A stretch of 64,000 bases of DNA from Escherichia coli. GTDB taxonomy: Bacteria > Pseudomonadota > Gammaproteobacteria > Enterobacterales > Enterobacteriaceae. The notes below the pieces were generated by a model that did not search any database, had not been told where the DNA came from, and saw nothing but the letters and a program-made list of their open reading frames with translations. This document shows positions 14,373 to 15,524 of the stretch, piece after piece; within the stretch, counting starts at the first letter, position 1, and every line of letters begins with the position of its first letter. The stretch lies in assembly GCF_011045215.1 (NCBI RefSeq), contig NZ_CP049202.1, one strand, 5' to 3'. Both the position numbers and the translations under genes were made by a program.

Positions 14373-15524
14373 TCACATTGCTGCACGATAAATTGCAACT
14401 ATCTCTTCATGTGTCGCCTGTATCGGGTTCGTCAGCCCACAGGCATCTTTCAGCGCATTTCTGGCCAGTTCCGGTATATCTTCATCTTTCACATTCAGGT
14501 CGCGTAGCCCTGCCGGAATATTAACTTTCTTCGCCAATTCACGGATGGCATTAATACAGACTTCAGCACCTTCCTCGTCATTTTTACCCGTCACGTTCTC
14601 CCCCATTGCAGCAGCGCAGTCACGCAAACGTGCAGCTGCAACTTTACTGTTAAATGCCTGAACATACGGCAGCAGAACGGCATTACATACACCGTGCGGC
14701 AGATTGTAGAAACCACCCAGTTGATGCGCCATCGCATGAACATAACCCAGAGATGCGTTATTGAACGCCATTCCTGCGAGAAACTGAGCATAAGCCATCG
14801 CCTCACGCGCTTTTTCATTGTTGCCATCCTCAACGACCAATGGCAAATATTCCGCAATCATGGTCACGGCTTTCAGTGCACAAGCGTCGGTGATCGGTGT
14901 GGCAGCAGTAGATACATACGCTTCAATAGCATGAGTTAAGGCATCCATACCGGTAGCCGCAGTCAACGGCTTCGGCATACCGAGCATTAACGAGGGGTCA
15001 TTGACAGAAAGCAGCGGAGTCACATGTTTATCCACTATCGCCATTTTGATGTGACGCACTTCGTCAGTGATGATGCAGAAACGAGTCATTTCTGACGCCG
15101 TACCCGCCGTAGTATTGATGGCGATCATCGGCAACTGCGGTTTTGCAGAACGGTCAACACCTTCGTAATCACGAATATCGCCCCCATTGGTGGCTACCAG
15201 CGCAATACCTTTTGCACAGTCATGCGGAGAACCACCACCTAATGAAATAACACTATCACAATTATATTCTTTCAGTAGTTTCAGACCTGCAGCAACATTT
15301 TCTGTGGTTGGATTAGGCTGGACGCCATCATAAATAACGCTAAAAACACTGTGTTCTTCCAGTGCTTTTTGCACATTCCCCGCCATACCTGACTTCGTTA
15401 ACCAGCGATCAGTAACAATCAGGCTTCGACGGAAACCATACCCCGCCATCATTCTGGTTGCTGTCGATAACGATCCCACCCCCAGCATATTTACAGAAGG
15501 GATAAAAAATGTTGACACACTCAT
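14373..15524 (-). CDS. yiaY: iron-containing alcohol dehydrogenase (YiaY/FucO family)
   Basis: 383 aa from ATG 15524 (GGAG Shine-Dalgarno); Fe-ADH signatures ([22 protein letters not shown], metal-binding His motifs); symbol from recalled similarity to E. coli YiaY. Confidence 0.8.

Follow-up and report, generated by a model that had tools for sequence, protein, structure and literature searches.

A yiaY-type iron-dependent alcohol dehydrogenase gene on an F-type plasmid of Escherichia coli probably belongs to a rare and old plasmid-resident lineage

Introduction

The closest described systems are the chromosomal YiaY of Escherichia coli, whose gene lies between selB and aldB, and the iron-dependent ADH2 of Zymomonas mobilis (structure 3OWO), which is a chromosomal enzyme of ethanol fermentation in another organism. 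The literature on the activity of E. coli chromosomal YiaY is inconsistent. The protein is cited in one paper as a second NAD-dependent L-threonine dehydrogenase (PMC10918650), and in another it is reported to reduce acetaldehyde and isobutyraldehyde weakly or not at all (PMC3439341). A literature search for plasmid-borne yiaY found no paper.

The gene described here lies in a 64,000-nucleotide stretch of E. coli contig NZ_CP049202.1, the whole of which is called the window below. The window is from an F-type conjugative plasmid. Rfam models locate CopA (IncFII replication control) at 36889–36979, a sok antitoxin RNA at 38905–39061 and an antisense-traG RNA at 53077–53162. An earlier note on this DNA regarded the gene as a complete, chromosome-type alcohol dehydrogenase captured on the plasmid, a metabolic cargo likely mobilised by flanking IS elements. 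Here the gene, its signals and its neighbourhood are compared with chromosomal and plasmid-borne relatives.

Results

The window carries an intact member of the YiaY family

The coding sequence of a yiaY-type iron-dependent (group III) alcohol dehydrogenase occupies positions 14373–15524 on the minus strand (383 amino acids and a stop codon). The reading frame is intact from the N-terminal MSVSTFF to the C-terminal AIYRAAM. A longer in-frame ORF extends to an upstream ATG at 15551, which is not preceded by a ribosome-binding site. The protein aligned over residues 1–383 of 383 with NF007363, the NCBIfam YiaY equivalog ('L-threonine dehydrogenase'), with a score of 791.9 bits where 581 is the cut-off. 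Lactaldehyde reductase, the family next in rank, scored 445 bits, under its own cut-off of 523. Pfam detected Fe-ADH (PF00465, E = 2.7e-47) in the N-terminal part and ADH_Fe_C (PF25137, E = 1e-81) as the C-terminal domain. With an intact frame, a full-length family match above the cut-off and both Pfam domains, the gene is complete, and the match to NF007363 upholds its likeness to YiaY; 'chromosome-type' is correct as a family assignment. The PGAP annotation of a nearly identical stretch in NZ_CP010124.1 already names the gene yiaY (WP_061358723.1).

The best solved structure for the window protein is 3OWO (546 bits), with 64.7% identity over 382 residues and no gaps. In ZmADH2 numbering we take Asp194, His198, His263 and His277 to be the metal ligands. 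D39, GGGS96–99, D102, D194, H198, H263, H267 and H277 are all found in the window protein, and the metal ligands and the GGGSxxD NAD motif with Asp39 are kept in every aligned allele, plasmid and chromosomal. The iron and NAD ligands are thus the same in both enzymes, and ADH2 serves as the best structural template and as a mechanistic analogue. From these residues the window protein can be assigned with good confidence to the group III alcohol/aldehyde oxidoreductases that depend on NAD(H) and Fe2+.

Signals around the gene form a conserved unit

A Shine-Dalgarno sequence, GGAG, was read from the sequence at 15532–15535 (minus strand), 7 nt 5' of the ATG, and is conserved in all plasmid yiaY alleles. 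On the other side of the gene, folding of 14215–14375 gave a hairpin at 14319–14349 on the minus strand, with a 12-bp GC-rich stem, a 7-nt loop and a tail of four U residues, which starts 24 nt past the stop codon. This hairpin is conserved in loci L002, L010 and L011; in L006 its place is taken by a hairpin of another sequence. The four-residue U-tail was too short for a consensus terminator scan, which passed over the conserved hairpin and picked out another, with a U-tract, at 14224–14244 (minus strand). The conserved hairpin is the probable terminator of yiaY. Of the two signals that had been assigned to the gene from its sequence, the ribosome-binding site of its own stands and the terminator of its own is to be called probable.

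Between the start codon and position 15641 (15525–15641, minus strand) lies a 5' region that is conserved in the plasmid yiaY unit. Its homology with L002/L010 and L006–L009 reaches 15641 and that with L011 reaches 15586, and it is unrelated to the regions upstream of chromosomal yiaY. It presumably holds a promoter or operator. A conserved 14-mer, TACAGAATAGACAT, lies at its upstream edge (15625–15638), and no second good copy of this motif was found within the window. A consensus sigma-70 promoter scan upstream of yiaY made no call. Our own reading of TAGACA-N16-TATAAA as the promoter is tentative: the last base is not the conserved T, and the sequence differs from allele to allele.

Together these parts make a promoter-to-terminator unit of about 1.35 kb (14291–15641, minus strand) that recurs on other plasmids in different contexts. 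The blastn limits of the unit are 14273/14291–15641 for L002 and L010, 14292–15586 for L011 and 14321–15641 for L006–L009. Rfam searches of 12500–17500 and of L004 6000–12500 found nothing.

Homology with chromosomal yiaY is confined to the coding sequence

BLASTN of 13900–16100 against 5,426 complete E. coli genomes, which the earlier note had proposed as a means of defining a captured segment and its junctions, found yiaY in 5,051 chromosomes at 85.4–85.7% identity. The matches were confined to the yiaY coding sequence. More sensitive blastn aligned 14372–15515 with E. coli chromosomal yiaY at 84.4% nucleotide identity (88.5% amino acid identity by direct comparison with locus L017) and with that of E. 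albertii at 82.6% (about 89% amino acid identity by tblastn). Chromosomal yiaY of Salmonella and Citrobacter showed 75–77% nucleotide and 82–84% amino acid identity over 14372/14375–15515/15526. The E. albertii chromosome was the best hit among the contig matches listed in the donor search (89% amino acid, 82.6% nucleotide identity). Among the matches listed from a search of 5.8 billion proteins none from a chromosomal context exceeded 84%, and the ordinary E. coli allele was not in that list. The nearest chromosomal relatives among those sampled are those of Escherichia, E. coli YiaY being the nearest by nucleotide identity. A protein closer to enzymes of another type would have spoken against the earlier note, and this one is closest to YiaY.

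No alignment was possible between the flanks of the window gene and the intergenic regions selB-yiaY and yiaY-aldB. Since chromosomal homology does not go past the coding sequence on either side, no captured segment or junction can be defined. Neither near-identity to a chromosomal allele nor homology running into the selB and aldB flanks was found. Identity of about 85%, restricted to the coding sequence, together with the synonymous divergence given below, speaks against a recent move from the E. coli chromosome, which is what 'captured' had implied.

The synonymous divergence (dS) of about 0.75 that separates the window gene from E. coli yiaY is about half of that between E. coli and Salmonella (1.37), and dN/dS for the window gene against E. 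coli is 0.085. The two proteins have the same length of 383 amino acids, no indels relative to each other and the same metal and NAD residues. They differ in that the E. coli gene is not on a plasmid, has an unrelated promoter region and terminator, and has a higher GC content at third codon positions (GC3, 51% against 43.8% in the window gene). The lower GC3 of the window gene is consistent with a long stay on AT-richer plasmids.

The chromosomal yiaY locus of E. coli is itself polymorphic, as seen in the selB-aldB interval at L103/L104 1486–5577. Two tandem yiaY copies are present in the L103/L104 contigs and in the complete genome 18KM2445, and the copies in L103 are 82.5% identical to each other. 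In PK5-like strains (L013 4574–5797) a 72-bp tandem expansion gives four copies of AAARLRDC and a protein of 407 rather than 383 amino acids. A Fic-family gene lies between yiaY and aldB in about 1,572 of the 5,426 complete E. coli genomes.

IS elements border the locus on one side only

The end of an IS66-family element lies at 13016–13801 on the minus strand, with tnpB at 13016–13417, tnpA at 13383–13712 and a terminal inverted repeat that extends to 13801. It was delimited by Pfam TnpB_IS66, by the annotation of NZ_CP010124.1 and by the point where homology with locus L004 starts. Position 13801 is the tip of the inverted repeat, GTAATGTTCCGGGG on the minus strand. Homology with L004, which is free of IS elements, runs leftward from the yiaY unit to 13802, beyond which the window and L004 are unrelated. 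Between the IS66 end and the yiaY stop codon are 571 bp.

IS66 and IS21 elements are found on the left, and the right flank consists of ColE1 relics followed by a Pef/Afr-type chaperone-usher operon (16952–22353). The gene does lie between an IS nest and a fimbrial operon, as had been described. Its mobilisation as IS cargo is another matter. Neither bracketing IS copies nor absence of the gene where the IS is absent was observed, and L004 and L005 carry the same gene (99.7% nucleotide identity) in the same backbone with no IS. Because the IS elements are one-sided and 571 bp away, we conclude that the IS nest reshaped the neighbourhood and did not bring yiaY.

Positions 12806–23126 of the window are 99.85% identical to plasmid B of E. 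coli C5 (NZ_CP010124.1), which was isolated from a cow. The remainder of the window differs from NZ_CP010124.1 in its IS arrangement and includes IncFII CopA, sok and tra genes.

ColE1-type relics and a 2-kb deletion

Remains of a ColE1-type plasmid are found on both sides of yiaY. To the left, a relic of cer-type accessory sequences (14053–14244, plus strand) is 78.9% identical to positions 1478–1674 of the Col plasmid L003; its last stretch is the hairpin with U-tract at 14224–14244 that the terminator scan called. The L003 copy runs into the canonical XerC/XerD core GGATTCGTACAA-TTAAGGGA-TTATGGTAAAT, and no such core was found in the window with up to 3 mismatches allowed. To the right, the 3' third of a ColE1-type RNAII/origin (15650–15874, plus strand) is 74.6% identical to L003 4921–5146, which is downstream of the L003 RNAI at 4440–4546. 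No RNAI was found anywhere in the window. A truncated rop of 50 amino acids follows at 15976–16128 on the minus strand (Pfam PF01815, E = 1.7e-9, profile positions 15–51 of 57; also annotated by PGAP in NZ_CP010124.1). As only the 3' part of the origin, a truncated rop and cer accessory sequences are present, the ColE1-type remains are a dead relic and not a replicon.

The cer-like element, about 190 bp long and non-coding, also occurs at L004 14380–14544, L003 1478–1730 and L106 3001–3185. The window copy and two others are without the core, and the Salmonella copy lies directly 3' of a resolvase gene. Because the left edge of the yiaY unit abuts the cer-like element, Xer-mediated insertion of a 'module' was considered, and it was rejected on finding no core in the window and no Xer-like sites at the edges of the unit.

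Window positions 13802–15638 match L004 11723–9887 and positions 15638–17000 match L004 7868–6506. Relative to its IS-free relatives the window thus lacks 2018 bp (L004 7869–9886) at a junction at 15638/15639. This deletion is common to the window and plasmid B of E. coli C5, and the junction lies just upstream of the conserved 5' region. The longer form in L004 is ancestral, because L004 9802–9886 is homologous to the upstream flank of L002. The L004 7869–9886 stretch contains fragments of an EamA-type transporter gene and of a resolvase gene. Insertion of yiaY into ColE1 RNAII was also rejected as an explanation, since the ancestral form in L004 has 2 kb of other DNA between the two and their adjacency in the window results from the deletion.

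Plasmid-borne yiaY genes group together

By tblastn, about 7 of the 72,556 plasmids in PLSDB are true plasmids with at least 80% amino acid identity to the window YiaY. Their hosts are E. coli, E. albertii, E. marmotae and Salmonella, and the smallest carrier is 68 kb. Proteins from plasmid contexts are nearer to the window YiaY than chromosomal ones, or at a similar distance.

The closest non-identical relative is L011, a metagenome contig (92.9% nucleotide identity) in which a K88-type fimbrial subunit gene lies immediately upstream of yiaY. At about codon 4 of this allele (L011 1293–1330) an A-run has lost 1 bp, which is either a frameshifted start or an assembly error. In plasmid pRHBSTW-00300_2 (CP056643.1) and L010 the gene is 84.4% identical in nucleotide and 91.6% in amino acid sequence and lies between stbB and a DUF465 gene. 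In the Salmonella RepFIB plasmid contigs L006–L009 it is 75.7% and 86% identical, respectively, and lies downstream of RepFIB. These alleles belong to the same clade as the window gene, are on F-type plasmids, in many cases close to fimbrial operons of the Pef/K88 class, and have in common with it the 5' region, the ribosome-binding site and the hairpin; they differ from it in sequence (75–93% nucleotide identity) and in context. Elsewhere yiaY adjoins FaeA/PapB regulators and an F4-like operon (F plasmids of E. marmotae and E. albertii), lies among esterase genes on an IncFII plasmid contig (L014/L015), or adjoins PerC and a raffinose (raf) operon (IncK2/Z plasmids).

Neighbour-joining (NJ) trees of this single protein, built from Kimura protein distances, placed the alleles of the window, L002/L010, L011, L006–L009, L012/L100 and L014/L101 in one plasmid clade. 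All plasmid alleles were monophyletic in 92% of 200 and about 88% of 500 bootstraps, a figure that long-branch attraction could inflate given the long plasmid branch: by a three-point derivation dN is about 0.056 on the plasmid branch and 0.008 on the E. coli branch, roughly 7-fold less. A sister relation between the plasmid clade and the Escherichia chromosomal genes received only 38–40% bootstrap support.

In the subclade nearest the window, homology continues past the coding sequence, for about 115 bp on the 5' side and for about 80 bp, hairpin included, on the other. The presence of this promoter-to-terminator unit in unrelated insertion contexts is evidence of common plasmid ancestry that is independent of the tree. 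The second plasmid subclade (L012, L100, L014, L101) has no flanks in common with the window, and its members are possibly independent captures from unsampled donors. Between the window and L002 genes dN is 0.045 and dS 0.77, a ratio of 0.058. With dN/dS of 0.05–0.09 at dS of at least 0.75, purifying selection on plasmid yiaY is strong.

Discussion

The window gene is probably a functional member of a rare, old, plasmid-resident yiaY lineage. It is intact, belongs to the YiaY family and sits on an F-type backbone between flanks with no chromosomal homology. In the history we propose, a yiaY of the Escherichia/Salmonella/Citrobacter group, possibly of an Escherichia-like lineage, would have moved to a plasmid long ago. 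There it would have diverged into the alleles of IncF and IncK plasmids in E. coli, E. albertii, E. marmotae and Salmonella, and recombination would probably have carried it from one backbone to another as a short promoter-to-terminator unit. Later remodelling of the neighbourhood would account for the IS66/IS21 nest on the left and the 2-kb deletion on the right. Transcription would be monocistronic, starting in the gene's own conserved 5' region and ending at the hairpin terminator. In the protein, D194, H198, H263 and H277 would hold the metal and GGGSxxD with D39 would bind NAD, and the enzyme would catalyse the oxidation of a small alcohol or hydroxyl substrate or the reduction of the corresponding aldehyde. 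Candidate substrates are ethanol/acetaldehyde-like compounds or L-threonine, as claimed for E. coli YiaY.

Three other histories were weighed. A recent transfer of a yiaY segment from the E. coli chromosome to the plasmid by flanking IS elements is scarcely credible. IS66 and IS21 do lie on the left, and none of the chromosomal relatives sampled is nearer in nucleotide sequence than E. coli YiaY, but the identity is only about 85% to 5051 E. coli chromosomes and stays within the coding sequence. The IS elements are one-sided, with the IS66 end 571 bp from the stop codon, the gene is also found in this backbone in L004 and L005, which are free of IS elements, and the unit is present without these IS elements in other plasmids. 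Moreover the window gene groups with plasmid alleles, the closest of which have the same 5' region and hairpin, whereas chromosomal genes do not. We consider it unlikely, though less so, that yiaY was the cargo of a small ColE1-type plasmid that formed a cointegrate with the F-type plasmid and then decayed. The position of yiaY between the cer relic and the ori relic with truncated rop, in the order and orientation cer, cargo, ori seen in L003, fits such an origin, but two relics would agree in order and orientation by chance in about 1 case in 4. PLSDB holds no small plasmid with yiaY, the smallest carrier being 68 kb, and the ancestral arrangement in L004 has 2,018 bp of unrelated gene fragments between yiaY and the ori relic. 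On other plasmids the unit has no ColE1 relics near it, and the cer core and RNAI are absent from the window.

The gene might also be a decaying, functionless passenger that hitch-hikes beside the fimbrial operon. Hosts usually have a chromosomal yiaY already (5051 of 5426 genomes), the L011 allele has its 1-bp deletion near codon 4, yiaY of CP067309 is broken by an IS, and the promoter scan gave no clear promoter. Against this, the reading frame in the window is intact, every allele retains the catalytic and cofactor residues, dN/dS is 0.05–0.09 over dS of at least 0.75, and the 5' region and hairpin are conserved; a passenger is very unlikely. The preferred reading remains a plasmid-resident lineage whose product is functional.

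Of 7 independent plasmid contexts, 5 have a Pef/K88-class chaperone-usher operon 12 kb or less from yiaY, and one more has raf beside it. Across L100, L101, L102, L105 and the window (16952–22353), plasmid yiaY alleles are repeatedly close to Pef/K88-class fimbrial operons with their FaeA/PapB regulators or, in IncK2/Z plasmids, to PerC and raf. The linkage is suggestive, being a count made with no control on plasmids where such operons are common. One further idea is that selection maintains plasmid yiaY as an accessory gene for colonisation or metabolism, inherited together with Pef/K88-class fimbriae and raffinose genes in animal-gut Escherichia and Salmonella, and that its faster protein evolution reflects a shifted substrate or role rather than drift. 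We regard this idea as tentative and on balance doubtful.

The enzyme family is well known, and so are the plasmid type and the relics around the gene. The comparison corrects a plausible story of IS-driven capture from the host chromosome and points instead to a housekeeping-type iron alcohol dehydrogenase that would have a small, long-lived, selectively maintained plasmid lineage, repeatedly near adhesin operons in animal-associated enterobacteria. The point is a modest one, for plasmid biology and also for annotation, since a second, divergent 'yiaY' in a genome is not necessarily a duplicate.
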